A stretch of 64,000 bases of DNA, taken from assembly GCA_019326865.1 (NCBI GenBank), contig GCA_019326865.1_4101.1. The stretch is one strand, 5' to 3'. Under the pieces are notes generated by a model. The model did not search any database. It worked only from the letters and a program-made list of their open reading frames with translations, and was not told where the DNA came from. The translations under genes were made by a program, and so were the position numbers. The DNA is from a phage. Shown here in pieces: positions 560 through 13,646 of this stretch (its first letter is position 1; each line of letters opens with the position of its first letter).

Positions 560-567
560 AAAAGTAC

Positions 568-1164: not shown

Positions 1165-1509
1165 ATGGCTAACATCAATACTATAGCAGCACAAAATATC
1201 AACCTGTCTTCTGTTGAAGTTGTACACATTGCCGCCCGGCGTTGGTTCCAGGCGTCTTATGGTAATACGTATTTCTCTTTAACGGTAGATGTTGAAATCA
1301 ATGGCGAATTTATTGAAGTAGTAAACGTGCCGTTCCAATATGGCTACGGGGATCATTTTGACACTGTAGCAATGGAAGAATTTAGCAAGGTTATTAATAT
1401 GGAAGGTAAAGAGTTTTTACGCGGTTCTTATCTTTCCCGTTTTTGCCGTGATAATAATATCACTGTTTATAGTTCTGTTAGTGATGTTAAACGCAAAAAA
1501 GATCTTTAA
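1165..1509 (+). CDS. hypothetical protein (114 aa), paralog of 7526..7849
   Basis: ORF track; shares GNTY, YGYG and C-terminal DVKRKKD with 7526..7849. Confidence 0.65.
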   Translation: MANINTIAAQNINLSSVEVVHIAARRWFQASYGNTYFSLTVDVEINGEFIEVVNVPFQYGYGDHFDTVAMEEFSKVINMEGKEFLRGSYLSRFCRDNNITVYSSVSDVKRKKDL

Positions 1510-1589
1510 TTAGCTTTACTTTATGCAGATACTTTGATATAGTGTCTGCATAGGGGAAAGAAATTAAATCAACTTAAGAGGATAGTAAA

Positions 1590-1859
1590 ATGAAAAATAT
1601 CAGTACTTTAATCGATGCAGGTACACATGTTCGTCGGTCTATGGTTGCAACCAGTTCTACAAAACAAGTAGCGAGCGGTTATCTTGTATTTGTGCACGAT
1701 GGAAAACTCCTGGAACGTTCAATCAATTTTGATGTTAAAAACAATTGCCGTTTTATTATCTTTCGCCGTGAACAATACAAGATCGACATTCCAGCAAAGC
1801 CCATTAGCGGGGCGTACAACGTGCAATCATTGTTTGAGCGTCAACCATACACCTATTAA
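1590..1859 (+). CDS. hypothetical protein (89 aa)
   Basis: ORF track; SD AAGAGGA upstream; overlapping 1684..1911 frame rejected. Confidence 0.6.
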   Translation: MKNISTLIDAGTHVRRSMVATSSTKQVASGYLVFVHDGKLLERSINFDVKNNCRFIIFRREQYKIDIPAKPISGAYNVQSLFERQPYTY

Positions 1860-1910
1860 TCAAAACATCGTTAGCGGTCGATTTAGGCCGCTTATACTGG
1901 GGATTATATA

Positions 1911-2183
1911 ATGAATACTAATCAAGTACTGAATGAGATTGAAAGCATCATTAAACCGATGAAGCGTACTGATGCAATGTTAACACCGGAAGAATGCCGC
2001 CTATATGAGCGTTATAGCGTCGAACAAGTCCAGGAAATGGCTATGGCTATCCCTGCCGTTCAACAGCCTGAGAATGCGTCACAGGACGTTACAGGGGATT
2101 ATAACATCAATCCAGTACTAGGGAAGATTACACCAATTACCGAAGAAGAAAAAGACTACTTAAGCCAGTACTTAAAAGGTTAA
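1911..2183 (+). CDS. hypothetical protein (90 aa)
   Basis: ORF track; tightly packed after previous gene. Confidence 0.55.
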   Translation: MNTNQVLNEIESIIKPMKRTDAMLTPEECRLYERYSVEQVQEMAMAIPAVQQPENASQDVTGDYNINPVLGKITPITEEEKDYLSQYLKG

Positions 2184-2188
2184 TTAAT

Positions 2189-2398
2189 ATGCTTACTGTA
2201 CAGGATAAGATCGACATCTTAAAGGTTAATATGTATGTGATTGATGCAGATCCTGAAAAAGTATTTGCATACGATGATTCTAATCGTAGTCCTTTTTATT
2301 GTAGTCATGTAGTTGGATATGTGCCGTTATCGTATGTTATCGAAAGAGTGGTTGATTCAGCATACAAACATTTTTTAGAAAATAGTACTTGCAATTAG
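2189..2398 (+). CDS. hypothetical protein (69 aa)
   Basis: ORF track. Confidence 0.5.
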   Translation: MLTVQDKIDILKVNMYVIDADPEKVFAYDDSNRSPFYCSHVVGYVPLSYVIERVVDSAYKHFLENSTCN

Positions 2399-2416
2399 TT
2401 TTTAGTACTGTATAAT
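2389..2416 (+). promoter_or_regulatory. sigma70-like promoter with 5' leader hairpin
   Basis: TTGCAA-16nt-TATAAT; GGGGGG..TTCTCCCC hairpin 2429-2448. Confidence 0.5.
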
Positions 2417-2466
2417 GTTTTACATGAAGGGGGGAAATGATTCTCCCCAATAACAGGAGAAACAAA

Positions 2467-2619
2467 ATGAAACAATACAACGCTCGGTTTGATGTTACTA
2501 TCGGCAACGGCAAAGGTCAATTCTCTTTCAGTGCTCGTAAGAGTTATACAGAAAACTTCTTGCGTAATTGTGCACTGACCGCCGCACAAATTAAACATTA
2601 TTTTCAGGCTAAAAAATGA
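2467..2619 (+). CDS. hypothetical small protein (50 aa)
   Basis: start moved from track ATG 2437 (inside hairpin loop) to ATG after SD AGGAGAAAC. Confidence 0.5.
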   Translation: MKQYNARFDVTIGNGKGQFSFSARKSYTENFLRNCALTAAQIKHYFQAKK

Positions 2620-2705
2620 AATCATTAGCTTATTATAGCTCGGCCCTGGTCGGTGCATTGATCGCGGCATTGTTAGTAGCTTATCTATTCTTTATGGTGA
2701 TTTAA
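2616..2705 (+). CDS. hypothetical hydrophobic peptide (29 aa)
   Basis: hand-translated MKSLAYYSSALVGALIAALLVAYLFFMVI; ATGA-coupled to upstream gene; single TM-like helix. Confidence 0.3.
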   Translation: MKSLAYYSSALVGALIAALLVAYLFFMVI

Positions 2706-2843
2706 ATGAATCCTAACGGTATAATTTACAGTACTCCTAAAACTAAAGCAGATAAAGCGGAAGCACGTAAAGCGAAAGTAAAGGAGTACATCAAGCAAGG
2801 TATGACACGAAAGGCGGCGATTCTAAAAGCTAAAAATAAATGA
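2706..2843 (+). CDS. hypothetical basic small protein (45 aa)
   Basis: hand-translated MNPNGIIYSTPKTKADKAEARKAK...; directly follows previous stop. Confidence 0.35.
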   Translation: MNPNGIIYSTPKTKADKAEARKAKVKEYIKQGMTRKAAILKAKNK

Positions 2844-2975
2844 AAAAAAGTGGTTGACTTCGGTCAGCCATTTTGCTATTATATATTCATTGAGAGATAG
2901 CTCACTAGCCCACAGGGTGCGGGAGTGTATCTATTATATAAGTATTGAGTACTGAAAACTATTTTAAAAGTACAT
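2844..2975. repeat. intergenic element R copy 1 (terminator-like hairpin + promoter + conserved core)
   Basis: hairpin TGGTTGAC-TTCG-GTCAGCCA with flanking A/T runs; TTGACT(2854)-17-TATTAT; core CTAGCCCACAGGGTGCGGGAGTGTATC. Confidence 0.75.
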
Positions 2976-2986
2976 GTATAAAGTAC

Positions 2987-3014
2987 TTGCAAACTATCTC
3001 AATTGGCGTATAAT
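2987..3014 (+). promoter_or_regulatory. sigma70-like promoter with 5' leader hairpin
   Basis: TTGCAA-16nt-TATAAT; AGGGGAAA..TTTCCCCT hairpin 3028-3046. Confidence 0.55.
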
Positions 3015-3065
3015 GTTTTACATCGAGAGGGGAAACGGTTTCCCCTAGTAATAAGGAATAAAATC

Positions 3066-3407
3066 ATGACTATTGCAATTGTACAATCTAACTTTGAAAA
3101 TGAAATCATCGCCCAAGCACTGCGTTTAAATGATGGTCGGGCCGAAATTAATTACGGTTTCAATTCAGGCGGTTGTGAAAAATATCAGTACTTTATAACT
3201 GCTGATGGCGGTGTCCTGGGTATTAATACAGTTATTGTAAACATTCAGAAAATTAATTTCAATGATCCAGACGATAGCCAGTTTTACATTGTAGGCGTAG
3301 ACGTGAACTATGAGGATGACTCACTAACTGATGATTACACTGGCGAGAAGTTAGAAAGTGCATACGGTGAAGATGATTATCAGTCAGTACCGGAAGATTT
3401 TGAATAA
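3066..3407 (+). CDS. hypothetical acidic protein (113 aa)
   Basis: start moved from track 3003 to ATG after SD AAGGAAT; acidic C-terminus. Confidence 0.6.
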   Translation: MTIAIVQSNFENEIIAQALRLNDGRAEINYGFNSGGCEKYQYFITADGGVLGINTVIVNIQKINFNDPDDSQFYIVGVDVNYEDDSLTDDYTGEKLESAYGEDDYQSVPEDFE

Positions 3408-3421
3408 TATTAAAAAATAGT

Positions 3422-3449
3422 TTGACAATAGATTATAGTACTGTATAAT
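3422..3449 (+). promoter_or_regulatory. sigma70-like promoter with double leader hairpin
   Basis: TTGACA-16nt-TATAAT; two stem-loops (GGGAAGTTTTAAAAACTTCCC and GGGAGAATAGTTCTCCCC) before SD. Confidence 0.55.
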
Positions 3450-3531
3450 AGTTTACATCAAGGGCGACGGGAAGTTTTAAAAACTTCCCTATAGGGAGAA
3501 TAGTTCTCCCCACTAACAGAGAGAAAACAAA

Positions 3532-3744
3532 ATGGCTAATATCTGCACTGTACTGAAAAATGCAAAACAAGTTTTATTTTCTGATCACGATCATTTAAAC
3601 AAGGATATTACTGGCGTTCGGAATATCAAAGATGTAAAACGTGTTATGGGTATCTATTGCAATATGAAACGTGTCGGCACGTTCGGTAATAAATTTCTAT
3701 ACCAGGCGGGGGATTACAATTTTACACTGACTATCATTAACTAA
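3532..3744 (+). CDS. hypothetical protein (70 aa)
   Basis: ORF track; SD AGAGAGAAA. Confidence 0.6.
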   Translation: MANICTVLKNAKQVLFSDHDHLNKDITGVRNIKDVKRVMGIYCNMKRVGTFGNKFLYQAGDYNFTLTIIN

Positions 3745-3823
3745 AAATATTATCACAGTACTATTGACATAGATTGATAGTACTGGCATAATAGATTTTA
3801 TTAAAACAACTGAGGAAATTAAA
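3744..3823. repeat. promoter cassette copy 3
   Basis: near-identical to 790-869; TTGACA(3764)-17-CATAAT. Confidence 0.8.
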
Positions 3824-4003
3824 ATGGCTATCATCGCAAAAACTGAAATCATCGGCCTGGATTCTATCATCATGACGTTTGAAGATCAAAAAGGTATGTA
3901 TGTAGTTTCCTATGGTGATTATGTTCGGGAGTATGAAACGGTAGACGAAGCCTTTGAAAGTTACATTCGCCAGGTGAATAAAGCATACGACGATTACCGC
4001 TAA
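3824..4003 (+). CDS. hypothetical protein (59 aa)
   Basis: hand-translated MAIIAKTEIIGLD...DDYR; same cassette and N-terminal MAII as 870..1082. Confidence 0.5.
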   Translation: MAIIAKTEIIGLDSIIMTFEDQKGMYVVSYGDYVREYETVDEAFESYIRQVNKAYDDYR

Positions 4004-4030
4004 AATATATTACCAGTACTATCAAAGCTA

Positions 4031-4058
4031 TTGACAACGTTTGATAGTACTGTATAAT
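4031..4058 (+). promoter_or_regulatory. sigma70-like promoter
   Basis: TTGACA-16nt-TATAAT. Confidence 0.55.
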
Positions 4059-4104
4059 AAGTTTTATCAACTGTAGTTAACTTAACAAAAGAGAGAGAAA
4101 CAAA

Positions 4105-4248
4105 ATGATCGCACTGGATTCATTCATCGATGCAGTTCTGGCAAAAACTGGCGAGGATCTGACCGCAGAACAATACGCGATGATCGAGCAATGCCAGCAA
4201 GACGGTAAATCGGTGAAAGATACTGTTAAGATTATCCGCAAGATGTAA
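4105..4248 (+). CDS. hypothetical small protein (47 aa)
   Basis: hand-translated MIALDSFIDAVLAKTGEDL...; SD AGAGAGAGAAA; followed by hairpin AGCCCA..TGGGCT. Confidence 0.45.
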   Translation: MIALDSFIDAVLAKTGEDLTAEQYAMIEQCQQDGKSVKDTVKIIRKM

Positions 4249-4354
4249 GATTATAAGCCCATTAGTTAACGCTGGTGGGCTTTAATCATTTACCCTATAC
4301 AATGCCAGTACTAAACCGTTTATCTCGTTAGAATGCATTACAGGACGTTTAACA

Positions 4355-4552
4355 ATGATTAGCATGAAATCAGTACAAAAACAAATAGAAACATTATCAA
4401 AAATTAAACGTAAACAGTACTCATTAGAATATAATATCAATGGTAACTATCATCTAATGAAAGAGAATAATTTTATCGTCATTGATGAATCATTGCAAAT
4501 TATTAGTATAGTACTGAAAGCATTAATTAATGATAGAAAAAGGTTAAAATAA
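4355..4552 (+). CDS. hypothetical protein (65 aa)
   Basis: ORF track; no strong promoter seen. Confidence 0.4.
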   Translation: MISMKSVQKQIETLSKIKRKQYSLEYNINGNYHLMKENNFIVIDESLQIISIVLKALINDRKRLK

Positions 4553-4809
4553 TGGCAGTAGGATTCGCGAAAGATGGAGCCGAGCAAGATGAGATTAACG
4601 CAGTTATTCAAGCCGCCGTTAACCACGCTAGAAAGCAAATTAACGCACAAATAGAATCACTGATACATTGCCTCGACTGCGGCGATAAAATCCCTGAGAA
4701 TCGCCGACAGGCTGTTAAGGGATGTAAGTACTGCATAACCTGCCAGGAAGATCATGATAGTACTTTTAAACGAGATCCGCGTAATTGTTGGCATAGATCT
4801 ATGAGATAA
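4552..4809 (+). CDS. TraR/DksA-type C4 zinc-finger protein
   Basis: CLDCGDKIPENRRQAVKGCKYCITCQ = C-x2-C-x17-C-x2-C typical of TraR/DksA fingers. Confidence 0.55.
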   Translation: MAVGFAKDGAEQDEINAVIQAAVNHARKQINAQIESLIHCLDCGDKIPENRRQAVKGCKYCITCQEDHDSTFKRDPRNCWHRSMR

Positions 4810-4816
4810 AAAGTAA

Positions 4817-4844
4817 TTGACAGTACTGAAAGATAGTGTATAAT
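4817..4844 (+). promoter_or_regulatory. sigma70-like promoter
   Basis: TTGACA-16nt-TATAAT. Confidence 0.55.
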
Positions 4845-4873
4845 GTTTTATATCTTAACTGAGGATAGAAATC

Positions 4874-5230
4874 ATGGGAATACAACATATCACGCTGACC
4901 ACTGACAATGGCGAGATCACTGGTTATCAAGTACAGGGCAAAGTAGCACAATTGCAGTACTGGTTTGTTAAACGTGGAATCATTGCACCGGATCTTGATT
5001 ATGACCGTGTAGCGTTTATTGATTCTCTTTATGTTGATCCTGAAAGTCGGGGCAATGGTGAAGGTAACGAATTAATGAATGCCTTTATTGATGCCGCCGA
5101 TGATTCAGATTGTATCATTTTAGAATGCGATACGGGAGAAGATAACGCCTTCAATCTTAAAGAATGGTATGAAGGTTTCGGATTCGAAGTACTGATCGAT
5201 AGTGAATATCCTATCATGATTTTATCATAG
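4874..5230 (+). CDS. small GNAT-family acetyltransferase-like protein
   Basis: VDPESRGNGEGNELM resembles GNAT motif A (R-G-x-G-x-G); NAFNLKEWYEGFGF resembles motif B. Confidence 0.5.
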   Translation: MGIQHITLTTDNGEITGYQVQGKVAQLQYWFVKRGIIAPDLDYDRVAFIDSLYVDPESRGNGEGNELMNAFIDAADDSDCIILECDTGEDNAFNLKEWYEGFGFEVLIDSEYPIMILS

Positions 5231-5244
5231 TACTAAAAAAGTAA

Positions 5245-5272
5245 TTGACAGTACTATCAGATAGTATATAAT
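5245..5272 (+). promoter_or_regulatory. sigma70-like promoter with 5' leader hairpin
   Basis: TTGACA-16nt-TATAAT; AGGGGAA..TTCCCCT hairpin 5283-5302. Confidence 0.55.
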
Positions 5273-5319
5273 GTTTTACATAGAGGGGAAACATCTTCCC
5301 CTACTAAGAGGAAAGAAAA

Positions 5320-5508
5320 ATGGAAAACTTATCAAGTATTTTAGTACAAGATGATTTTGGTAATCCTGGAAGTGCTATCATTGTTCGGGGTAATAAAGCA
5401 ACGTTTGTTATTGCTGGTGGACCTGTACAGCGTAGCATTAAAAACAATGCTGTTACTATTAATAATGTACGCTATCGCTTAGATAAAGAATTGATTCATA
5501 AACTGTAA
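5320..5508 (+). CDS. hypothetical protein (62 aa)
   Basis: ORF track; SD AAGAGGAAAG. Confidence 0.55.
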   Translation: MENLSSILVQDDFGNPGSAIIVRGNKATFVIAGGPVQRSIKNNAVTINNVRYRLDKELIHKL

Positions 5509-5535
5509 TATTAATTTAATAGAGGATAACAATAA

Positions 5536-5859
5536 ATGTACATTCATACTACTATCACAAAGGAAGTCCGTTGCCAGTTCGAAAGTATTCCGGGCGTATG
5601 TTTCATCACTGGTACGTTTTCCCCTGGTGATCGTGATAATCCAGTACTGTTACAGTTACGCCATCCATTATGGGATAAAGCATTTGATCTACCGTTGAAT
5701 GAATTCGCAACTACTGCTGAAAAGTACATTAAAAATATTCGCGAGAATGATCGACTATTCATTAATGCTTTTAGTGATTCCGCGTTAAGCGAGATCCACG
5801 GCGTATTGGTTGCAATCATGGAATCAATGGAGAAAACTAAATTCAAACAAGGTGAATAA
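5536..5859 (+). CDS. hypothetical protein (107 aa)
   Basis: ORF track; SD AGAGGATAA. Confidence 0.6.
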   Translation: MYIHTTITKEVRCQFESIPGVCFITGTFSPGDRDNPVLLQLRHPLWDKAFDLPLNEFATTAEKYIKNIRENDRLFINAFSDSALSEIHGVLVAIMESMEKTKFKQGE

Positions 5860-5865
5860 AAACTA

Positions 5866-5893
5866 TTGACAATGTAATCTAGTACTGTATAAT
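5866..5893 (+). promoter_or_regulatory. sigma70-like promoter with 5' leader hairpin
   Basis: TTGACA-16nt-TATAAT; GGGGAGAAATGATTCTCCC hairpin. Confidence 0.55.
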
Positions 5894-5943
5894 AAGTTAC
5901 ATGAAGGGGAGAAATGATTCTCCCTACTAAGAGGAAAGAAAAA

Positions 5944-6156
5944 ATGCAAGGTCAACTAATCGTTCGTAAATGGTCTGATACTAATGAAAAACCGTGGGAT
6001 GTACAATACATCGGACCGGATGGGGTATCACGTTATCAGCCTGGCGTAACGCATAGTACTGAGCAATATGCCGCCGCTCATCGTGAACGCCTGTTAGAAT
6101 CTATGCAACAGGGTTTAGGTGAAAAATTCATTCAAGATCATTGGCTGAAAGATTAA
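5944..6156 (+). CDS. hypothetical protein (70 aa)
   Basis: start moved from track 5914 (ATG in hairpin loop) to ATG after SD AAGAGGAAAG. Confidence 0.55.
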   Translation: MQGQLIVRKWSDTNEKPWDVQYIGPDGVSRYQPGVTHSTEQYAAAHRERLLESMQQGLGEKFIQDHWLKD

Positions 6157-6164
6157 AAAGTACT

Positions 6165-6191
6165 TGTGTAGTATAGAAAATAAAGTATAAT
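6165..6191 (+). promoter_or_regulatory. sigma70-like promoter with 5' leader hairpin
   Basis: TTGTGT-15nt-TATAAT; GGAAGGGGAATAGTTCCCCTCC hairpin. Confidence 0.45.
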
Positions 6192-6242
6192 GTTTAATAC
6201 AGGAAGGGGAATAGTTCCCCTCCTAACAAAAAGGAAAGTAAC

Positions 6243-6416
6243 ATGATTCATGTAGAATTGTCAGTACTGAGAGATTTGTTTTATCGGATGGGTACTACTG
6301 GCGAATATCCGAAGGGTGATACTGCAAAACTTTTTGTATCTCTCGACTTATGGCAACGCGAACAATTAGTAATGTCGTGGCGTAAAGGTAAAGCAGATCG
6401 CGAGGTGAAAGCATGA
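6243..6416 (+). CDS. hypothetical protein (57 aa)
   Basis: hand-translated MIHVELSVLRDLFYRMG...; SD AAAGGAAAG. Confidence 0.4.
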   Translation: MIHVELSVLRDLFYRMGTTGEYPKGDTAKLFVSLDLWQREQLVMSWRKGKADREVKA

Positions 6417-6562
6417 AAGAATTTTTATTCGAAGTAGTTTTTATTGGTGTAAGTAGTCACCAATTGATTCGCTCAAGTGGTTACAATGTTTGCCAGGCAT
6501 GGAATAACATTAAACAAATGTACCCGAACGCTATCACATATCGCAACCCAAAACAAGTTTAA
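6413..6562 (+). CDS. hypothetical protein (49 aa)
   Basis: hand-translated MKEFLFEVVFIGVSSHQ...; ATGA-coupled to upstream ORF. Confidence 0.35.
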   Translation: MKEFLFEVVFIGVSSHQLIRSSGYNVCQAWNNIKQMYPNAITYRNPKQV

Positions 6563-6570
6563 AAATAATT

Positions 6571-6705
6571 AAAAAAAGGATTGACTTCGGTCAGTCCTTT
6601 TTGCTATTATATATTCATTGAGAGATAGCTCACTAGCCCACAGGGTGCGGGAGTGTATCTATTATATGTTGGTGGGTGTATTATCTAGTACTGAAAACTA
6701 TTTGA
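6571..6705. repeat. intergenic element R copy 2
   Basis: hairpin GGATTGAC-TTCG-GTCAGTCC; TTGACT(6581)-18-TATTAT; conserved core as in copy 1. Confidence 0.75.
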
Positions 6706-6715
6706 TAAAAAGTAC

Positions 6716-6743
6716 TTGCATTGTACTTAGAATCAAGTATAAT
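6716..6743 (+). promoter_or_regulatory. sigma70-like promoter driving an ORF-less structured leader
   Basis: TTGCAT-16nt-TATAAT; followed by about 80 nt with nested inverted repeats and no ORF before the next promoter. Confidence 0.45.
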
Positions 6744-6833
6744 GTTTTACATCAGGACAGGGAACGAAATAAGTAACTTCCCGTTAAGTAGCCCAGGAGT
6801 AAGGCATACGAAAAACTCCCCTGATAAAATAGT

Positions 6834-6862
6834 TTGACAATAGTTTTAAGTACTGATAAAAT
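6834..6862 (+). promoter_or_regulatory. sigma70-like promoter
   Basis: TTGACA-17nt-TAAAAT; cassette homologous to 269-330. Confidence 0.5.
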
Positions 6863-6894
6863 AATCACATCAACTACTGATAAGGAAACATAAA

Positions 6895-7170
6895 ATGCGG
6901 GTTCTTCTGACAGCTAACGAAATCGAGCAAGTACTTACTACTAACCTGGAACAATGGAAACGTGAAGCAGATATCCAGGCGGTTCAATTGTTAAATGAGA
7001 AGTTAACGCCGGATGATTTAAGTAAGATTGTAGATCCTCAATTCTACGAAGATATTCACGACACCGCGTTAAGCGTCGAGGATGTACTAGATAAACACTA
7101 CATTGATACTAATTTACAGGGTTACGGTCGTAAAAATTTTATTACTATTCACGACATTTACAATAATTAA
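6895..7170 (+). CDS. hypothetical protein (91 aa)
   Basis: ORF track; SD AAGGAAAC. Confidence 0.6.
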   Translation: MRVLLTANEIEQVLTTNLEQWKREADIQAVQLLNEKLTPDDLSKIVDPQFYEDIHDTALSVEDVLDKHYIDTNLQGYGRKNFITIHDIYNN

Positions 7171-7173
7171 GTA

Positions 7174-7201
7174 TTGACAAAGTATCTTAGTACTGTATAA
7201 T
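7174..7201 (+). promoter_or_regulatory. sigma70-like promoter with 5' leader hairpin
   Basis: TTGACA-16nt-TATAAT; GAGGGGAATGGTTCCCCTC hairpin; cassette repeated at 7443. Confidence 0.6.
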
Positions 7202-7256
7202 AGTTTACATCAAGTGAGGGGAATGGTTCCCCTCCTAACAAAGAGAGAAATAAAAA

Positions 7257-7439
7257 ATGGCTAAGTGCACTATCTGTAAGAAAGAAATAGTATTAGTTCC
7301 AAGTGCCCGTGAGCGTGCAGCTCGGTTCGGTGGCAAAGCGTCAGACTATACAAAAATGTTTACTACTCATGCAAATTGCCAGGTAGCAAAACGTTCACAA
7401 GAAAGCGTAGAATTAATGCGTAAACTTTCCAAAAAATAA
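7257..7439 (+). CDS. hypothetical Cys-containing protein (60 aa)
   Basis: ORF track; CTIC...H..C possible zinc ligands. Confidence 0.55.
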   Translation: MAKCTICKKEIVLVPSARERAARFGGKASDYTKMFTTHANCQVAKRSQESVELMRKLSKK

Positions 7440-7442
7440 GTA

Positions 7443-7470
7443 TTGACAAAGTATCTTAGTACTGTATAAT
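7443..7470 (+). promoter_or_regulatory. sigma70-like promoter with 5' leader hairpin
   Basis: TTGACA-16nt-TATAAT; near-identical to 7174 cassette. Confidence 0.6.
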
Positions 7471-7525
7471 AGATTACATCAAGTGAGGGGAAACGGTTCC
7501 CCTCCTAACAAAGAGAGAAATAAAA

Positions 7526-7849
7526 ATGACTATGATCCTTGCCCAGAAAGTAGAACTGAAAATTGTAACTTCCTTTGACATTAAAGTTAATCGCTGGACT
7601 GATCGGAACGGTAATACTTACCACTCTTGCTACGTGTCTGCATTGATTGGTGATCGTTGGGAAGACTTGGGACACGAAACCTTTACATACGGTTACGGTA
7701 CGCAAGGCGAATACACTGGTTTGGAGATCATTAAAGAAACCGTTATAGGTTTCAACCCGAAAGAAAAAGTTATTCACCGCATCGAAAAAGAGATTAATAA
7801 AGAAATAACAGTTCGCTACTACGATGTAAAACGTAAGAAAGACATGTAA
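7526..7849 (+). CDS. hypothetical protein (107 aa), paralog of 1165..1509
   Basis: ORF track; shared YGYG and C-terminal DVKRKKD. Confidence 0.65.
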   Translation: MTMILAQKVELKIVTSFDIKVNRWTDRNGNTYHSCYVSALIGDRWEDLGHETFTYGYGTQGEYTGLEIIKETVIGFNPKEKVIHRIEKEINKEITVRYYDVKRKKDM

Positions 7850-7871
7850 TAGAATCCATTTAAAGTACTAT

Positions 7872-7900
7872 TTGACATTACACAGATAGTACTTTATAAT
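7872..7900 (+). promoter_or_regulatory. sigma70-like promoter
   Basis: TTGACA-17nt-TATAAT. Confidence 0.55.
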
Positions 7901-7935
7901 AGACTCTAACTTGTAGTATTAACTTAACTAATAGG

Positions 7936-8340
7936 ATGTATACCATGATTACTAAATTCTACGCTACCCGTGAAGCTGCCCGTATTGTTGCACGCGAGGA
8001 AGGAGCGGCATTTAAAGACATGGGCAAAGATGCACCGAAAGGCCAACGCTGGAGCGTACAGTTCAAAGAAATCTCTGATATTGTGAATTCACCTGAACCA
8101 GTACTGACAGCAGCAGAACAGAAGAAAGCTGATGAACTGGCGGCAATTCTTAACGCTCAAGATGAATTCGTCGAGGGTGCTGATATCCAGGTTGTAGTAA
8201 ATTCGAATGCATGGACTCACGCGGATCATCTGGCTAACCTGAAGCGTCCAAGCGTATTGATTCGCAACCATAAAGAGATCCGACACGACCGCAAGGGCAA
8301 CCGTGTTACTGTATACAGTAAACGCCGCCAGGTTATCTAA
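7936..8340 (+). CDS. hypothetical protein (134 aa)
   Basis: ORF track; alternative start ATG 7945; followed by terminator. Confidence 0.6.
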   Translation: MYTMITKFYATREAARIVAREEGAAFKDMGKDAPKGQRWSVQFKEISDIVNSPEPVLTAAEQKKADELAAILNAQDEFVEGADIQVVVNSNAWTHADHLANLKRPSVLIRNHKEIRHDRKGNRVTVYSKRRQVI

Positions 8341-8362
8341 TACCTAGCAGTACTAACAACAC

Positions 8363-8388
8363 GGCGGGATCTGTTCCCGCCTTTTTTA
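8363..8388 (+). terminator. rho-independent terminator
   Basis: GGCGGGA-TCTGT-TCCCGCC followed by TTTTTT. Confidence 0.7.
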
Positions 8389-8402
8389 CAGGATAAACTA
8401 AA

Positions 8403-8657
8403 ATGATTAAGGTAAAACTATCTAAAGATAATATCTTGCGGGTACACTATAAAGCCCCTCAGAGAATCATCACAAAGGCCGTACAGCTTGCGAATGAGTT
8501 TATTAATGGTAATCTATTACCTAGGAAGTTAAGCAACGGAAAACTGCGTGTAATCGATGTAGACACTAACAACAGAATAGTAATAGAGAATACCGGAAAG
8601 ATAAACCTATATGAACACCAACAATATAATAAGAAAATAAAACTAATTAGTCGTTGA
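8403..8657 (+). CDS. hypothetical protein (84 aa)
   Basis: ORF track. Confidence 0.55.
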   Translation: MIKVKLSKDNILRVHYKAPQRIITKAVQLANEFINGNLLPRKLSNGKLRVIDVDTNNRIVIENTGKINLYEHQQYNKKIKLISR

Positions 8658-8711
8658 CAGTACTCAAATGTTTTAGTACTATATATCTATACCAACACGG
8701 AGAGAAACAAA

Positions 8712-8930
8712 ATGAAATTATCTAAAATCGAAAAGAAAACTATTGACGTAGCTATCCAACATGGTTACACCTTTCGTAATGATTTACATTTTACCAATTT
8801 TCAACAAGGGTATCGTACTATTAAAAAACTAATTGACAAAGGTTTATTAGTTAAAGTAGACAACGGCAACGGCGTTGAATATCAACCAACACAGGACGCA
8901 TTTAATTTTAAGAAATATAATATTATCTAA
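8712..8930 (+). CDS. hypothetical protein (72 aa), possible winged-helix DNA binder
   Basis: ORF track; promoter TTGACA 8654; IKKLIDKGLLVKVDNGNG wing-like segment (weak). Confidence 0.5.
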   Translation: MKLSKIEKKTIDVAIQHGYTFRNDLHFTNFQQGYRTIKKLIDKGLLVKVDNGNGVEYQPTQDAFNFKKYNII

Positions 8931-8987
8931 TTGACAGTACTCAAATGTTTTAGTACTATATCTATACCAACACAGGAAAAAAACAAA

Positions 8988-9572
8988 ATGCGTAATTATA
9001 CTAAATTCATCCGTACACTGTCAGAAATGGAAACCAACAAAGAGATCTTGACAGCTTGTCGGTTAGCTGGTCTGGAGATCATCGGTGCGGGGTCTTCCCG
9101 TATTGTATTCGCTTTAAATGATCGGTTAGTGATTAAGGTCGCGAATTGTGATGCGGGTGTAGAACAAAATGAAACAGAATGTAAAGTATGGAATTTTTTA
9201 GATTATGACCGACCTCAGTTGAAACAGTTCTTTGCTAAAGTACATATGCATTTAAGCGATCCTGATAATATGTTTATTGTTATGGATCGGTTGAGTACTG
9301 CAAGTAAAGGCAGTGTAAAGCACGTTAACGCGTGCAACGAATTAAAGTACAATATTAAACGTAATGCAATCGAACGCCAGCACCGCTTTGCTGATGCACT
9401 ACAACACGTCGATGATACATTATCAACACTAACGATCAGAGATATCAGAAAACAGAATATCGGACAGGATCGAAATGGACTGATTAAAGTACTTGATTAT
9501 GGTTTAACCCGCAATATCTGGAATCAGTACTATAAAAAGCGTGATGTAAAAGCCGTAACTATAACACGATAA
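8988..9572 (+). CDS. compact protein-kinase-like protein (194 aa)
   Basis: start moved from track TTG 8931; Gly-loop IGAGSSRIVF, VIKV lysine, catalytic-loop-like RDIRKQN, DFG-like LDYG. Confidence 0.5.
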   Translation: MRNYTKFIRTLSEMETNKEILTACRLAGLEIIGAGSSRIVFALNDRLVIKVANCDAGVEQNETECKVWNFLDYDRPQLKQFFAKVHMHLSDPDNMFIVMDRLSTASKGSVKHVNACNELKYNIKRNAIERQHRFADALQHVDDTLSTLTIRDIRKQNIGQDRNGLIKVLDYGLTRNIWNQYYKKRDVKAVTITR

Positions 9573-9580
9573 AAAAGATT

Positions 9581-9705
9581 AAAAAAGGGATTGACTCCGG
9601 TCAGTCCCTTTGCTATTATATATTCATTGAGAGATAGCTCACTAGCCCACAGGGTGCGGGAGTGTATCTATTATATAAGTATTGAGTACTGAAAACTATT
9701 TTTAA
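9581..9705. repeat. intergenic element R copy 3
   Basis: hairpin GGGATTGAC-TCCG-GTCAGTCCC; TTGACT(9591)-17-TATTAT; conserved core. Confidence 0.75.
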
Positions 9706-9713
9706 AAAGTACT

Positions 9714-9740
9714 TGCATTGTACTTAGATTCAAGTATAAT
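9714..9740 (+). promoter_or_regulatory. sigma70-like promoter with 5' leader hairpin
   Basis: TTGCAT-15nt-TATAAT; imperfect GGGGGAACGTCCC hairpin; SD AAGGAAT. Confidence 0.55.
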
Positions 9741-9787
9741 GTTTTATATCGAGAGGGGGAACGTCCCTGATAATAAGGAATAAAATC

Positions 9788-10009
9788 ATGACTACAATGA
9801 CTTGCATTTACGCTTCCAATCTTCTGAATGATGCTGTTTTTAATGTTGATTCAGAATATCAATGTTATCGGGATGAAAATAAAAAAGTTTTTGTAGTTGA
9901 TAATAATGGTTTCCATATTGAATTACAATCCGGCTTCACTGGTGTTGATGGTAAATCAGTATGGGGCGTACAGGATGATAAAGGCACATATCATTTTAAA
10001 CGTAATTAA
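9788..10009 (+). CDS. hypothetical protein (73 aa)
   Basis: ORF track; SD AAGGAAT. Confidence 0.6.
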   Translation: MTTMTCIYASNLLNDAVFNVDSEYQCYRDENKKVFVVDNNGFHIELQSGFTGVDGKSVWGVQDDKGTYHFKRN

Positions 10010-10012
10010 GTA

Positions 10013-10040
10013 TTGACAAAGTATCTTAGTACTGTATAAT
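10013..10040 (+). promoter_or_regulatory. sigma70-like promoter with double leader hairpin
   Basis: TTGACA-16nt-TATAAT; same double hairpin as at 3460-3510. Confidence 0.6.
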
Positions 10041-10124
10041 AGTTTACATCAAGGGCAACGGGAAGTTTTAAAAACTTCCCTATAGGGAGAACAGTTCTCC
10101 CCGATACTAAAAGGAAACAAAAAT

Positions 10125-10397
10125 ATGTCTAGCTACTCCGCTACTATGATCATTAAAGATATGAACGGTAATCCTACTGCTGCTGGTGGATCATTTGGAA
10201 ACATTAACTTAGATGGTCGGTTAACCATGCAATCAGCCATCAATGCAGCGAAAGAAGTTTTTAAGAATGAATGCACTGTAAGTAAGCTGGATTATATGGG
10301 ATTCGCTATCGAGAAAACTAATCGTTTTGTGAACTACAAAAATCCACTGATGATTGATACTAACCTGAAAGCTAACGAAGTGGAATACTTATTATGA
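10125..10397 (+). CDS. hypothetical protein (90 aa)
   Basis: ORF track; SD AAAGGAAAC. Confidence 0.6.
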   Translation: MSSYSATMIIKDMNGNPTAAGGSFGNINLDGRLTMQSAINAAKEVFKNECTVSKLDYMGFAIEKTNRFVNYKNPLMIDTNLKANEVEYLL

Positions 10398-10585
10398 CAG
10401 TTGAAGAAGTTAAAAAAGTACTGGCAGTTCTACGCTATCATAACCATTGCAAGGTGAAGAATGATTCTGATTATCTTGATTCATCCCTTGAGGAAGACAC
10501 ATTAAACGCAATAAGCTATATGCAAACATTATTAAAACGTATGACCGAAAAGAATAGACCGGACTATATCGGAAATAAAATTTAA
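10394..10585 (+). CDS. hypothetical protein (63 aa)
   Basis: ORF track; ATGA-coupled. Confidence 0.5.
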   Translation: MTVEEVKKVLAVLRYHNHCKVKNDSDYLDSSLEEDTLNAISYMQTLLKRMTEKNRPDYIGNKI

Positions 10586-10593
10586 AAAGTACT

Positions 10594-10620
10594 TGCATTG
10601 TAGTTAGATTAACGTATAAT
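10594..10620 (+). promoter_or_regulatory. sigma70-like promoter with 5' leader hairpin
   Basis: TTGCAT-15nt-TATAAT; GAGGGGAAATGGTTTCCCCTC hairpin. Confidence 0.55.
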
Positions 10621-10671
10621 GTTTTATATCGAGAGGGGAAATGGTTTCCCCTCAAGTCCAGGAGATACACA

Positions 10672-10935
10672 ATGAACACTATCGAAATCACTATCAATGC
10701 TCACGTATACGACAACGTAGTACTGCAAACTACTATGACCGCTAATGATACCAGTACTTTGCGGAATACTGTTATTAGTGCTGTATGTGCCGCTATCGGT
10801 GATGTCGCCCTGGAAAATGCAAAACACGTAAACGATGGTTTCACTATGTGCAAGCGTGATAACGCAAAACATATCATCGTAGAAGGTTACGGCGGTGTAG
10901 AATATAATGTTTATATGAAAAAAGTACTTGCATAA
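10672..10935 (+). CDS. hypothetical protein (87 aa)
   Basis: ORF track; SD CAGGAGA; 3' end overlaps next promoter. Confidence 0.6.
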   Translation: MNTIEITINAHVYDNVVLQTTMTANDTSTLRNTVISAVCAAIGDVALENAKHVNDGFTMCKRDNAKHIIVEGYGGVEYNVYMKKVLA

Positions 10936-10955
10936 TAACTAAAACAAAGTATAAT
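10928..10955 (+). promoter_or_regulatory. sigma70-like promoter with 5' leader hairpin
   Basis: TTGCAT-16nt-TATAAT; GGGGGAGATATCCTCCCCC hairpin. Confidence 0.55.
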
Positions 10956-11002
10956 GTTTTGCATAGGGGGAGATATCCTCCCCCACTAAAAGGAGTAATA
11001 AA

Positions 11003-11227
11003 ATGGCTAACTTTGATGAACTGATGCGGGAAGTAGCTAACCTGGCAGAAGAGAAGAAATCATTCGATTCTATCTATAACACCTCTTACCGTGATTCAGT
11101 ACTGGCATGTAACCAGGATCAAAAAGATGAACTAATCGCCACCTATTATGAAGCATGGAAGTACTACCGACAATGGGAGAAAGAAGAAAGTGAGTCTACC
11201 ATTGACGGCCTCAATAATCTAATCTAA
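11003..11227 (+). CDS. hypothetical protein (74 aa)
   Basis: ORF track; SD AAAGGAG. Confidence 0.6.
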   Translation: MANFDELMREVANLAEEKKSFDSIYNTSYRDSVLACNQDQKDELIATYYEAWKYYRQWEKEESESTIDGLNNLI

Positions 11228-11245
11228 AGTTTTATTTCAGTACTA

Positions 11246-11274
11246 TTGACATAGATTGATAGTACTGATATGAT
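11246..11274 (+). promoter_or_regulatory. sigma70-like promoter
   Basis: TTGACA-17nt-TATGAT; partial copy of the 790 cassette. Confidence 0.45.
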
Positions 11275-11302
11275 AACTTTACTATCTACAAGGGGAAACA
11301 TC

Positions 11303-11560
11303 ATGGAACAATTCACACAATATCGGGTAAATCCTCAAGCTATGGCATACGTAGAAGACCATAAAACGTTACCAGTACAAACACCAATTAAAGGCCATAT
11401 CTATCGTGCAATGTCATGGAATCCGGCCCAGTATGGCTATAACACCGTAGCCGTGGGCATGTACTGCGGCAATGGTGAATGGTTTGATCCTAACAATCCG
11501 ATTGCACTTGATAGTACTGAAAAAATGAAATGGGCCGACTACATCGAAGATATTTCATAA
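11303..11560 (+). CDS. hypothetical protein (85 aa)
   Basis: start moved from track 11270 (ATG inside -10 region) to ATG after SD AAGGGGAAA. Confidence 0.55.
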   Translation: MEQFTQYRVNPQAMAYVEDHKTLPVQTPIKGHIYRAMSWNPAQYGYNTVAVGMYCGNGEWFDPNNPIALDSTEKMKWADYIEDIS

Positions 11561-11567
11561 AAATTAT

Positions 11568-11595
11568 TTGACAGTACTAACCAGTAATGTATAAT
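11568..11595 (+). promoter_or_regulatory. sigma70-like promoter with 5' leader hairpin
   Basis: TTGACA-16nt-TATAAT; GCGGGGGAATAGTTCTCCCGC hairpin. Confidence 0.55.
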
Positions 11596-11650
11596 GTTTT
11601 ACATAGAGCGGGGGAATAGTTCTCCCGCCAATAGTTTGGAGTAAAACATT

Positions 11651-11851
11651 ATGTCTATCGCTATCGCCCTGGTCGAAGTACTGAAAGAAGCTAAAGCCAA
11701 CCTTATCGATGTACAGATTAAGGAATTGCAAAATGGCTTAATCGGCTGTACTTGTACCGCTGGTGGCCCGTCAGACTATCGGGAATTCGAATCACTTGAA
11801 TCGATGGTCCGTTATCTTACAATCATCGTAGAAGATTGGAGAATCATCTAA
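11651..11851 (+). CDS. hypothetical protein (66 aa)
   Basis: ORF track; SD TTTGGAG. Confidence 0.55.
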   Translation: MSIAIALVEVLKEAKANLIDVQIKELQNGLIGCTCTAGGPSDYREFESLESMVRYLTIIVEDWRII

Positions 11852-11865
11852 CAAAAAAAAAGAAT

Positions 11866-12005
11866 AAAAAGGGATTGACTCCGGTCAGTCCCTTTGCTAT
11901 TATATACGCATAGACAAAAACTAGCCCACAGGGTGCATAGGTGTATCTTAAATATATAGTTAATAACGGTGAGTAACTATCTGCTGGTGGGGTGAAAACT
12001 ATTAA
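11866..12005. repeat. intergenic element R copy 4 (diverged)
   Basis: same hairpin and TTGACT(11875)-17-TATTAT; central part diverged, keeps CTAGCCCACAGGGTGC. Confidence 0.7.
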
Positions 12006-12014
12006 TAAAAAGTA

Positions 12015-12043
12015 TTGACAAAGTATATCAGTACTGCAATAAT
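12015..12043 (+). promoter_or_regulatory. sigma70-like promoter
   Basis: TTGACA-17nt-AATAAT. Confidence 0.45.
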
Positions 12044-12097
12044 GTATCTCGTAGGGCGGCAATGGTGCGACGGTCCACAAAGTTAGGAGATTCACAA

Positions 12098-12430
12098 ATG
12101 AGTACTTCAATCGCTATCGTTAAAGCTTTCATCCGTACCAACGTTTCATCTGTATTCATTGACGGACTGGATCGGGAAGTAGAATACTCAATCATTATCG
12201 CACAAACTGCAAACGGTGCTCGGTACATCCTTAATAATAGTGAAGCAAATCACTACTACTTCACTAAAGCCACTGGCTTTAAACGCATCGATGCTGATGT
12301 AGTATACGCTAAGATGAATAAGCTGGTAGACAAGATTAACGCGAAAGGTACTATCGATTTACAGTACTGGACCGAAACCGATCCAGAATATGGATCTCAC
12401 CGCTACCTGAATCCAGGTATTAAAATGTAA
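12098..12430 (+). CDS. hypothetical protein (110 aa)
   Basis: start moved from track 12062 to ATG after SD AGGAGA. Confidence 0.6.
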   Translation: MSTSIAIVKAFIRTNVSSVFIDGLDREVEYSIIIAQTANGARYILNNSEANHYYFTKATGFKRIDADVVYAKMNKLVDKINAKGTIDLQYWTETDPEYGSHRYLNPGIKM

Positions 12431-12437
12431 AAAGTAC

Positions 12438-12465
12438 TTGCATAGTACTTAGATTTAAGTATAAT
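12438..12465 (+). promoter_or_regulatory. sigma70-like promoter with 5' leader hairpin
   Basis: TTGCAT-16nt-TATAAT; GAGGGGGAAATGGTTCTCCCTCC hairpin. Confidence 0.55.
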
Positions 12466-12519
12466 GTTTTTCATAGAGAGGGGGAAATGGTTCTCCCTCC
12501 TAAATTAAGGAGTTTTATC

Positions 12520-12921
12520 ATGACCTTCTCAATCACTTCCTTCGCTGACGTTTTAGTACTGGCTCGGACTTTCGGCAAAGCTGGCCTTGAGCACGCTGTA
12601 AGTAATGGTTATATGCACCCGGAATATTGCCGCATTATCGGTAGCTGTAAACGTTGGGCCGTGTCCCGTAATATTGAGATTGAAAACTTCAATGATGGTA
12701 ACAACGAATATACAGTTGATGCAGTATTCGAATCCGTTGATCTCGGCGGTATCTATAACACTAACCTGAATGATGTGCGTATTGTTCGCACGGGGTTCGG
12801 TGCTTATGATGTATCTATCCGTGAAGCGATGGACAAGGGATACATTAGCAAGGATCAGTTAGCTTACATTATGCAGCAGACTAAAGAGCGTAATGAAGCA
12901 CGCACTATCTTAGGTCTGTAA
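12520..12921 (+). CDS. hypothetical protein (133 aa)
   Basis: start moved from track 12487 (ATG in hairpin loop) to ATG after SD AAGGAG. Confidence 0.6.
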   Translation: MTFSITSFADVLVLARTFGKAGLEHAVSNGYMHPEYCRIIGSCKRWAVSRNIEIENFNDGNNEYTVDAVFESVDLGGIYNTNLNDVRIVRTGFGAYDVSIREAMDKGYISKDQLAYIMQQTKERNEARTILGL

Positions 12922-12989
12922 GCATTACACATCACTAAACATCATAGGCCGCTCTCTAGCGGCCTTAACTATATCAGGAGTACATACAC

Positions 12990-13199
12990 ATGATCTATAC
13001 AGTATACAGTGTTCTAGGCACTATTGCAGGTGTACACGATAATGTCGATGATACTATGATTACAGTACTGCAACAGGTTCCACTAAAGCCTAAGACAGTT
13101 AAGAAGATGACCGCACGACTAACCAGGGCGACGGCTGGCGTGGAAGTATGGCAGGACTACGGGGATACACAGGTAATCGTAAGCGTAACGAGGGATTAA
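12990..13199 (+). CDS. hypothetical protein (69 aa)
   Basis: ORF track; SD CAGGAG; preceded by hairpin AGGCCGCT-CTCT-AGCGGCCT. Confidence 0.55.
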   Translation: MIYTVYSVLGTIAGVHDNVDDTMITVLQQVPLKPKTVKKMTARLTRATAGVEVWQDYGDTQVIVSVTRD

Positions 13200-13418
13200 T
13201 ACGTAAAATGATTTAGTACTGATTCAGAAAAAAGTCAAGGCGTTTTTAAAATTATGCGTTAAAAAAATGCATAGGTAATCCCTTGACTTTTTTGAAATAA
13301 AAGGGATTGGACTATGGCAAAATGCGTAGGGGGGCTAAAGTGCGGGTAACTTAGCGGCTTCGATAAAGGGGTATTACGAATAAAATGTTATTGACTTTTT
13401 ATATAAATCGTATAAAAT

Positions 13419-13646
13419 ATGATTGATAATAATTTTAAGGGAGTCCCTGTGCGTATTTTAACTCAAGCAGAACACCACGAAAGACTTATCAATAACATGG
13501 CTATGATAATGTATAAGTCCCATGACCGTGGTATTGCCTATAAGCGTGAATTAGTACTGGAACTATTCATTGGAACTAACTTTCAGGAAAGGTATGTCAA
13601 CGATTGGATTTGGTATTTAATTGAAGATATAACGAGTAAACTATGA
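13419..13646 (+). CDS. family A paralog (LGTNYQ motif), hypothetical
   Basis: famA motif IGTNFQERYV; start may be GTG 13446 after SD AGGGAG. Confidence 0.6.
   Translation: MIDNNFKGVPVRILTQAEHHERLINNMAMIMYKSHDRGIAYKRELVLELFIGTNFQERYVNDWIWYLIEDITSKL

Follow-up and report, generated by a model that had tools for sequence, protein, structure and literature searches.

A probable terminator-promoter cassette extended by a conserved structured leader RNA in the early region of a Rak2-like jumbo phage

What is the unit, called R in this work, that recurs four times between the small genes of the phage contig GCA_019326865.1_4101.1 (GenBank assembly GCA_019326865.1), at 2844–2975, 6571–6705, 9581–9705, and 11866–12005? 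We have analysed a stretch of 64,000 nucleotides (nt) of this DNA, referred to below as the window, which by sequence match represents the early region, rich in small open reading frames (ORFs), of an Asteriusvirus-like (121Q/PBECO4/G17) jumbo phage. A first-pass annotation had described R as a terminator-like hairpin fused to a sigma70-like promoter and followed by a conserved segment without ORF, and had offered a bidirectional terminator with a small-RNA promoter, a regulator-binding site, or a recombination module as its possible nature. Based on the anatomy of the unit, its coupling to a promoter, the base-pair covariation in the conserved segment, and the exchange among copies, all of which were obtained by computation, we regard R as probably a cassette of the PeSL (promoter-early stem-loop) type, i.e., of the promoter-plus-stem-loop repeats of T4-type phages, extended by a conserved structured RNA family. 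The conserved segment corresponds to nt +1 to about +50 of the transcript predicted from the R promoter. The fusion of terminator and promoter is of a kind already known in T4-type phages, and the attached leader of 45–51 nt appears to define a so far undescribed, clade-wide RNA family in Rak2-like jumbo phages.

Hairpin and promoter in the four R copies

The four units are located where the first-pass annotation had placed them, all on the + strand. Their 16-nt core, CTAGCCCACAGGGTGC, occurs exactly four times in the window, at 2905, 6633, 9642, and 11921, compared with 0.05 occurrences expected by chance, and none of 100 shuffled sequences reaches four. Similarly, the hairpin sequence GATTGACTYCGGTCAGTCC is found four times against 0.02 expected. 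The copies R1 to R3 are identical over ~65 nt, from GCTATTATAT through GTATCTATTATAT, and R4 is a shorter variant with a 5-nt gap, a diverged 5' part, and an unchanged core.

In every copy, an A-run is followed by a hairpin that carries TTGACT in its stem, and TATTAT follows at a distance of 17–18 nt, just as had been reported. The hairpins begin 4–17 nt past the stop codons of ORFs of 45–213 amino acids (aa), and all genes there lie on the + strand. With 12–13 pairs, their folding free energies (dG) range from -15.9 to -19.5 kcal/mol and their z-scores from -5.5 to -6.8; the loop is UUCG in R1 and R2, and UCCG in R3 and R4. Specifically, the R1 hairpin, AAAGTGGTTGAC-TTCG-GTCAGCCATTTT, spans 2847–2874 between a 5' A-run and a 3' T-run (dG -15.9, z -5.5; upstream stop at 2843), and the R2 hairpin spans 6573–6602 (13 pairs, dG -17.0; upstream ORF ending at 6562). 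Those of R3 (9584–9611) and R4 (11868–11895) have 12 pairs and a dG of -19.5 each, and the upstream ORFs end at 9572 and 11851, respectively. The layout of an intrinsic bidirectional terminator, with a U-run after the hairpin and an A-run before it, is present in all four copies, the U-run being short (UUU(U)GCUAUUAU). Orthologous hairpins have been annotated as terminators by ARNold in the phages G17 and GAP32. Judged from its sequence, each R hairpin is expected to terminate transcription.

The same hairpin provides the -35 box of the R promoter. In R1, whose promoter spans 2854–2882, TTGACT lies at 2854–2859 in the 5' arm of the hairpin and is followed by a 17-nt spacer, with TG at 2874–2875 and TATTAT at 2877–2882. 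The promoters of R2 (6581–6610, 18-nt spacer), R3 (9591–9619, 17 nt), and R4 (11875–11903, 17 nt), all on the + strand, are built from the same elements. As TG precedes the -10 hexamer in all four (an extended -10), the promoter TTGACT-17/18-TGcTATTAT scores 10/12 plus the extended -10, with the A-run upstream, as a match to sequence.

Looking at the whole family of leaders described below, we find TTGAC in the 5' arm of a hairpin with a dG of -10 or better in 46 of 105 copies. Among the 33 distinct hairpins, TTGAC/GTCAA is constant and the outer stem covaries (GTGG/CCAT, GGGA/TCCC, GTAC/GTAC, GGGG/CCCC, and others), with an A-run before and a T-run after. On the other hand, over half of the family members have an ordinary promoter without the hairpin, so the hairpin and the core, which had been taken as one unit, are separable. 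In addition, BLAST matches outside the Rak2-like group, including those in Vibrio and Aeromonas T4-like phages and in Brochothrix A9, cover only the hairpin-promoter part, which indicates that this design recurs widely and the core does not.

We have also considered and rejected a coding role of R. Two ORFs of 33 aa, at 2854 and 9591, have their TTG start in the -35 box, and indels disrupt them in copies 2 and 4; ORFs on the minus strand over the core are also interrupted by indels between the copies. The conserved segment before the next promoter is thus free of credible ORFs.

A covarying leader RNA family in Rak2-like jumbo phages

The conserved segment stands at a fixed place relative to the promoter. 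In the first 14 related loci plus the window, CCCNNNGGGTGC has 61 non-redundant sites on both strands, and ~57 of them lie 20–30 nt past the -10 hexamer of a TTGAC[AT]-17/18-TAnnAT promoter, whether the hairpin is present or not. With a covariance model built from nine gap-free sequences, we have obtained 125 matches (102 distinct) in 24 sources, i.e., the window and 23 loci, which come from G17, 121Q, GAP32, CBB, RaK2, the Yersinia phages fHe-Yen9-03 and -04, Serratia phage BF, and uncultivated contigs of ~350 kb. Among 107 distinct copies, almost every one has its -10 hexamer ending 5 nt ahead of the C in a conserved CAT, and this fixed distance predicts the A of CAT as the start of the RNA. 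A genome has 5–14 copies, which are clustered and occur on both strands, and the conservation of the leader spans Asteriusvirus, Alcyoneusvirus, Mimasvirus, and Eneladusvirus phages. The description as a four-copy element was therefore too narrow for a family that is far larger and clade-wide, although within the 64-kb window the model returns only the four known R sites.

From 5' to 3', the leader consists of the start CAU, a stem P1, a linker YUR, a second stem P2 (R-CCC-AYA-GGG-U), the dinucleotide GC, and a tail RNRRNU..UAUCUAU. P1 is a stem of 3–4 base pairs (bp) of free sequence, closed by a purine-rich hexaloop (such as AGAUAA, GAGAAA, GCGAAA, or GAACAA), and P2 is near-invariant, with an A-U or G-U closing pair and few CCU/AGG variants. 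In the window, the R1 leader is a long form at 2888–2938 (+ strand), with A2889 as the predicted start and a model score of 70.3 bits (E 3e-17). Its P1 pairs 2891–2894 with 2901–2904 around the loop AGAUAG, its P2 pairs 2908–2911 with 2915–2918 around the loop ACA, and GC and the tail GGGAGUGUAUCUAUUAUA come next. The long-form leaders of R2 (6616–6666, predicted start A6617) and R3 (9625–9675, predicted start A9626), which also score 70.3 bits each, are identical to it. The R4 leader (11909–11954, predicted start A11910; 46.4 bits, E 4e-10) is of the short form; like other short forms it has no P1 stem and retains the A-rich stretch, here with AGACAAAAA single-stranded, and its P2, GC, and tail are as in R1–R3.

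We have calculated pairing and covariation over the 102 distinct sequences. Standard pairs make up 94.8% of the pair cells, compared with 72.2% after shuffling, and none of 500 shuffles comes up to the real alignment; for covariation, a score of 0.434 compares with 0.135 in shuffled alignments. Sliding the 3' partners by 1–3 columns collapses both measures. Double changes are seen at all four P1 pairs, which take up to five forms (UA, GC, AU, UG, and CG), and RNAalifold independently predicts both the P1 and the P2 helix. It does count against these figures that the alignment behind the pair counts was fitted to the covariance model. This caveat is eased by the slide controls, by a mutual-information scan of all column pairs, in which the model structure was not used and exactly the four P1 pairs rank first, and by at least 13 different P1 stems around the same loop that are visible in the raw, unaligned sequences. 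Apart from P1, the scan of all leader column pairs has given no Watson-Crick covariation. A third helix, a pseudoknot between the P1 loop (AGAUA) and the tail (UAUCU), and the long-range helix preferred by RNAfold in the case of the window copies have been rejected, as they have no covariation support and are not conserved in other loop classes. Since the stem sequence of P1 varies while its pairing is kept, the earlier suggestion of a regulator-binding site on the DNA is disfavoured for P1.

The model is specific: in loci where the 12-nt core stands downstream of TTGAC by chance, it has no match over 754 kb of bacterial DNA and one weak match over 854 kb of viral DNA. Neither the window nor 117 kb of related loci match Rfam 15 at the gathering threshold, and at a permissive threshold there are only chance-level matches (E of 0.76 or higher), so the Rfam comparison that the first-pass annotation had proposed has named no known family for R; the element's presence in related genomes, which it had also proposed to check, is borne out by the model matches above. 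Looking for mimicry of the host, we have found no leader match in 5,426 E. coli genomes. Full-text literature searches on the motif strings and on the transcriptomics of these phages have returned no description of the element; for CBB, the genome paper reports 74 terminators as well as RpoD-like promoters but nothing of the R type. In the distant relative PA5oct, abundant non-coding RNAs supported by RNA sequencing (RNA-seq) are known from the terminal repeat, two of them highly expressed (8263–8498 and 21951–22401; PMC7318152). The covariance model finds no significant R leader match in 17 kb of this phage that include both RNAs (MK797984, 7000–24000). A scan of bacterial genomes and IMG/VR with TTGAC-N40-60-CCCAYAGGGTGC has been discarded as too loose, as nearly all of its matches were chance matches in GC-rich genomes, and its loci have served as the specificity control above; the stricter pattern CTARCCCAYAGGGTGCNNNNNTNNNTCTAT is expected to yield few of them.

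The contexts of the 107 copies are heterogeneous. About 40 precede a second promoter, as in the window; ~33 are in convergent pairs at fixed spacings; ~12 have a good intrinsic terminator within 100 nt; and ~12 stand directly before a ribosome-binding site and ATG, one of the genes concerned coding for a virion structural protein (phrog_16530). In the convergent arrangement, each transcript would continue into sequence antisense to its partner, and a long hairpin could form from it. Such pairs lie in ORF-free gaps of ~0.4–2 kb, for example at 5252–5355 and 3201–3467 of the G17 locus (L001) and at 3768–3878, 6597–6707, and 22878–22988 of GAP32 (L002).

The copies have also exchanged sequence with one another. 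At the R2 locus, the flanks are orthologous in the window and G17, but the window has a long-form leader where G17 has a short form. The G17 orthologues of R1–R3 differ among themselves, whereas the window R1–R3 leaders are identical, which indicates a gene-conversion patch of ~60 nt at R2. This result lends support to the idea of a recombination module.

The early region around the cassettes

The part of the window from 2500 to 12500 matches, in pieces and with 90–94% identity, Escherichia phages of the 121Q/PBECO4/G17 type (Asteriusvirus, genomes of ~350 kb), and the matched genes encode tiny hypothetical proteins. Window 1–13350 is collinear with G17 (L001) 9244–22802, within the first 23 kb of G17, and in several relatives the matched region is annotated as a direct terminal repeat. 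As G17 has additional R leader copies upstream of the point that matches the window start, and the matches fall in a terminal repeat, the four window copies belong to a larger cluster, of which they are the part inside the window. The convergent pairs of G17 and its antisense-oriented promoter-leader-terminator units also map upstream of the point where the window begins.

On the + strand of window 1–14000, we have found ~30 good sigma70-type promoters, ten of them with a perfect TTGACA-16-TATAAT, but only five convincing terminators, four of which are the R hairpins. This apparently divides the early region into blocks of 2.3–3.7 kb, at whose borders transcription would be restarted at once. 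Besides the R hairpins, the first 14 kb contain just one strong terminator, at 8363–8381 (GGCGGGATCTGTTCCCGCC then TTTTTT), which scores for both strands and is joined to neither a promoter nor a leader.

Downstream of all four R leaders there is a second promoter, and the gene start follows 170–280 nt further. After R1, an ordinary early promoter (TTGCAA-16-TATAAT, 2987–3014, + strand) serves the gene with ATG at 3067; after R4, a promoter TTGACA-17-AATAAT (12015–12043, + strand) precedes a gene with its Shine-Dalgarno (SD) sequence at 12085–12089 and ATG at 12098. The spacers of the promoters after R2 (~6717–6745) and R3 (~9715–9742) contain an AU-rich 10-bp hairpin, CATTGTACTT-AGAWTC-AAGTATAATG, followed by TTTTA, which could attenuate transcripts from the R promoter and give an RNA of ~120 nt. 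Another feature concerns the ends of the leader itself: a 10-nt string, CTATTATATA, flanks the long form, in R1 at 2876–2885 (the -10 region) and 2930–2939 (the tail end), and likewise in R2 and R3. The second CTATTATATA resembles a -10 element at about +45 and could be a sigma70-dependent pause site in the Asteriusvirus copies, the only ones that have it. We have considered a target-site duplication as its origin and rejected it, since the repeat consists of the -10 region and the tail and is confined to Asteriusvirus copies.

A palindrome, AGTACT, is a recurrent companion of the leader. It is present 0–35 nt downstream in 72 of 107 copies, against ~26% expected; in the window it lies at 2948–2953 (GAGTACTGAAAAC), 10 nt past the R1 leader, and at 6687–6692 and 9685–9690 downstream of the R2 and R3 leaders. 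In the whole 64 kb we count 202 copies against 17 expected, and in the first 14 kb 78 against 4 (further examples are at 2982, 6711, and 9708), and no other 6-bp palindrome in the window is enriched more than 2.5-fold. We find AGTACT at three kinds of site: the -35 region in the common early promoter (AAAAAGTACTTGCA), the spacer or the extended -10 (CCAGTACTGGCATAAT and TAGTACTGTATAAT), and the position just past the R leader (TTCAGTACTGAA). Being palindromic, these forms point to an operator at which a dimeric DNA-binding protein would act.

The ordinary early promoter cassettes (families D1, D3, and D5) number ~30 on the + strand of window 24–12496, for example at 2976–3045, 9702–9771, and 10571–10651. 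They have a GGGGAAA-nnn-TTTCCCC hairpin ~9 nt past the start, then a ribosome-binding site, and are PeSL-like with the stem-loop downstream of the -10. Further on, at 13500–20400 and 27400–36700, the window contains two arrays of diverged paralogous genes, which share repeated blocks of 50–240 nt with 60–90% identity (families D2, D8, D9, D11–D13, D15, and D17–D20).

Possible roles of the leader

Among known elements, the PeSLs of the T4-type phages RB49 and phi1 come closest to R. They combine a strong sigma70-like promoter with a terminating stem-loop, both with measured activities (Arbiol et al. 2010; PMC2839356); in one subclass the stem-loop overlaps the -35 box, and the cassettes recombine with one another (PMC2839356). 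R resembles them in being an intergenic repeat in a hyperplastic region of tiny orphan genes, and in its sigma70-like promoter with an AT-rich upstream tract, its predicted terminator stem-loop, the overlap with the -35 box, and the exchange among copies. Unlike PeSLs, R belongs to Rak2-like jumbo phages and has the additional conserved, structured, transcribed domain of 45–51 nt; its stem is based on TTGAC/GTCAA with a UUCG loop, compared with the GGGG...CCCC stem of PeSLs. The window cassettes are also followed by a second promoter, and not by SD and ATG as classical PeSLs are, although the ~12 copies of relatives mentioned above do have this feature. The latter difference weighs against reading R as a PeSL-type cassette, and so does the fact that promoter activity, transcription start, termination efficiency, the transcript itself, and its later fate are at present predictions.

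According to the mechanism that we propose, the R hairpin after the preceding early gene would stop the transcription accumulated from the many upstream early promoters. In its double-stranded form, the same DNA would supply the -35 box TTGACT, and together with the T-run and TGcTATTAT it would allow the host RNA polymerase to restart at once. The new transcript would start at the A of CAT and carry the RNA domain of 45–51 nt, which could serve as a recognition handle for RNA polymerase itself or for a conserved protein while the early transcript is still nascent. Such recognition is favoured by the conservation of P2, GC, and tail across genera, by the extreme 5' position of the leader, and by the heterogeneous content downstream; the genera that carry the leader share only ~33–38% of their proteins (CBB genome paper).

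Tentatively, the leader may act in the control of elongation and termination, in a way similar to lambda nut or HK022 put, so that transcripts initiated at R would behave differently at R hairpins from those of ordinary promoters. Like nut and put, it is a short structured RNA just past strong early promoters in a region with terminators. The lambda boxB RNA, which is recognised by an arginine-rich peptide, has a 5-bp stem and a GNRA-like purine pentaloop; P1, with its purine-rich loop on a short stem whose sequence is free and with the conserved block after it, recalls boxB, but its loop has 6 nt and its covarying stem of 3–4 bp is optional. In the put RNA, two adjacent stem-loops over ~65–70 nt act on RNA polymerase in cis; the R leader contains two small hairpins in a stretch of ~35 nt. 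No similarity of R to these signals has turned up in Rfam, nor to nut in sequence, and R has 5–14 copies per genome on both strands. Several further points weigh against such a role. The leader consensus has no boxA-like sequence (of the CGCUCUUA / UGCUCUUUAACAA type), P1 is dispensable and missing from the short forms, and almost every early gene has its own promoter, so that a need for read-through is not obvious. Some copies meet a terminator at once or face another copy, which fits a free small RNA better. Finally, we have found no candidate for a partner protein and no N-like protein; a basic 178-aa ORF behind some leaders was considered for this part, but it belongs to the virion structural family phrog_16530 and is absent from the window.

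In the main rival reading, which we consider possible but on the unlikely side, the leader makes up the body of an early small RNA that acts in trans and is encoded in many copies; this RNA could be regulatory, or could titrate a host or defence factor as a decoy or sponge. Its canonical genes would be the promoter-leader-terminator units of relatives, non-coding units of 95–130 nt that are formed by the ~12 of 107 copies with a nearby terminator, contain no ORF, and lie mostly on the strand opposite the genes. One of them is at 7540–7589 (- strand) of the G17 locus L001, ending at the annotated terminator 7497–7517; others are at 9991–10035 of locus L013 and at 16265 and 23333 of L014, all on the - strand. 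The many copies behind near-consensus promoters would lead to very high early abundance, and the near-invariant P2-GC block fits one conserved partner. On the other hand, the majority of copies lack their own terminator and lead into a promoter, a gene, or a facing copy, and the four in the window are among them. The small-RNA promoter of the first-pass annotation is upheld in kind, by a segment that begins at the predicted start, a covarying hairpin, and the units in relatives, but not as a discrete RNA of 60–100 nt in the window, where the RNA should be a leader that runs into the next promoter and gene. On the rival reading, the window copies would make the same RNA joined to an mRNA, from which it would be freed by processing within its AU-rich tail or by attenuation at an AU-rich hairpin inside the next promoter; the presence of such a hairpin, with UUUUA after it, in the spacer of the promoter that follows R2 and R3 (about 9715–9742) speaks for this reading. 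Against it, we have found no conserved single-stranded seed with an identifiable target in the leader, and E. coli genomes contain no similar or mimicked sequence; the fixed extreme 5' position on heterogeneous transcripts fits a role in cis at least equally well.

More speculatively, and with a rather low probability in our estimation, the leader could be a new phage RNA signal that is delivered in many copies and reprograms RNA polymerase (antitermination or anti-Rho) or acts as a decoy for an enterobacterial RNA-binding or defence protein, with the convergent pairs as an antisense or double-stranded RNA antagonist. If this is true, the signal would be made from the strongest host-polymerase promoters within seconds of infection, and antitermination or anti-Rho activity, factor-dependent or factor-independent, would be specific to R-initiated transcripts.

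Two other roles fit the data less well. The leader is improbable as a 5' stability or processing element, whose 5'-proximal hairpins would guard early transcripts against RNase E or RppH, or would guide a defined cleavage, in parallel to the GGGGAAA..TTTCCCC hairpin after the ordinary early promoters. P1 does begin 2–4 nt from the predicted 5' end, the ordinary early promoters of the window place their hairpin ~9 nt from the start and share their first 9 nt (CAUYGAGAG) with the long-form leader, and the ~12 copies directly before a ribosome-binding site and ATG would suit this role. However, the short forms without P1 leave ~15 unpaired nt at the 5' end, and since protection needs structure alone, the near-invariance of P2, GC, and tail across genera is left unexplained, as are the copies with nothing downstream to stabilise.

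Similarly improbable is a role at the DNA level, as a PeSL-like recombination linker or selfish cassette, an operator, or an R-loop-type (T4 oriF-like) origin, in which the RNA fold would be incidental. The gene conversion is demonstrable, with R1–R3 identical in the window and the G17 loci different, one of them a short form, and PeSLs recombine and form mini-circles (PMC2839356). The origin would consist of a strong promoter, a G-cluster, and an AT-rich unwinding tract; by composition, GGGTGCGGGAGTG then TATCTATTATATAAGTATT could be an R-loop initiation zone plus an unwinding element, and the frequent AGTACT downstream is palindromic. Nevertheless, conversion within a genome cannot explain the cross-genus conservation of P2 and tail alongside compensatory changes in P1, an operator would keep its sequence and not its pairing, and 5–14 clustered copies on both strands are unusual for origins.

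Other known systems share single features with R. The early promoters of the T7 A1–A3 and T5 type are also near-consensus promoters for the host RNA polymerase with AT-rich upstream tracts at the genome end that enters the cell, and the first transcribed bases of the ordinary early promoters of the window, ATCGAGAGGG, are identical to those of T7 A1; in contrast to R, the T7 and T5 promoters are not fused to a terminator and have no conserved structured 50-nt leader repeated across the region. REP/BIME sequences and the Correia elements of Neisseria resemble R as short intergenic repeats present in many copies, with the potential to form hairpins and to provide promoters, terminators, or processing sites, but R is phage-borne, stands at a fixed distance from a promoter, and has, as a rule, no terminal inverted repeats or target-site duplication.

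The Rak2-like jumbo phages (121Q, PBECO4, RaK2, K64-1, GAP32, CBB, and relatives) have been isolated and considered for phage therapy, and their early transcription is essentially unmapped. The placement of an RNA terminator and a DNA -35 box in the same 22 nt makes R a compact natural insulator part that could serve synthetic biology. The leader family, with more than 100 distinct members, offers a testable entry to the transcription by the host polymerase across hundreds of tiny early genes. Overall, the idea developed for PeSLs, that mobile promoter and terminator cassettes shuffle orphan genes, would be extended by R to a second and very different group of phages.

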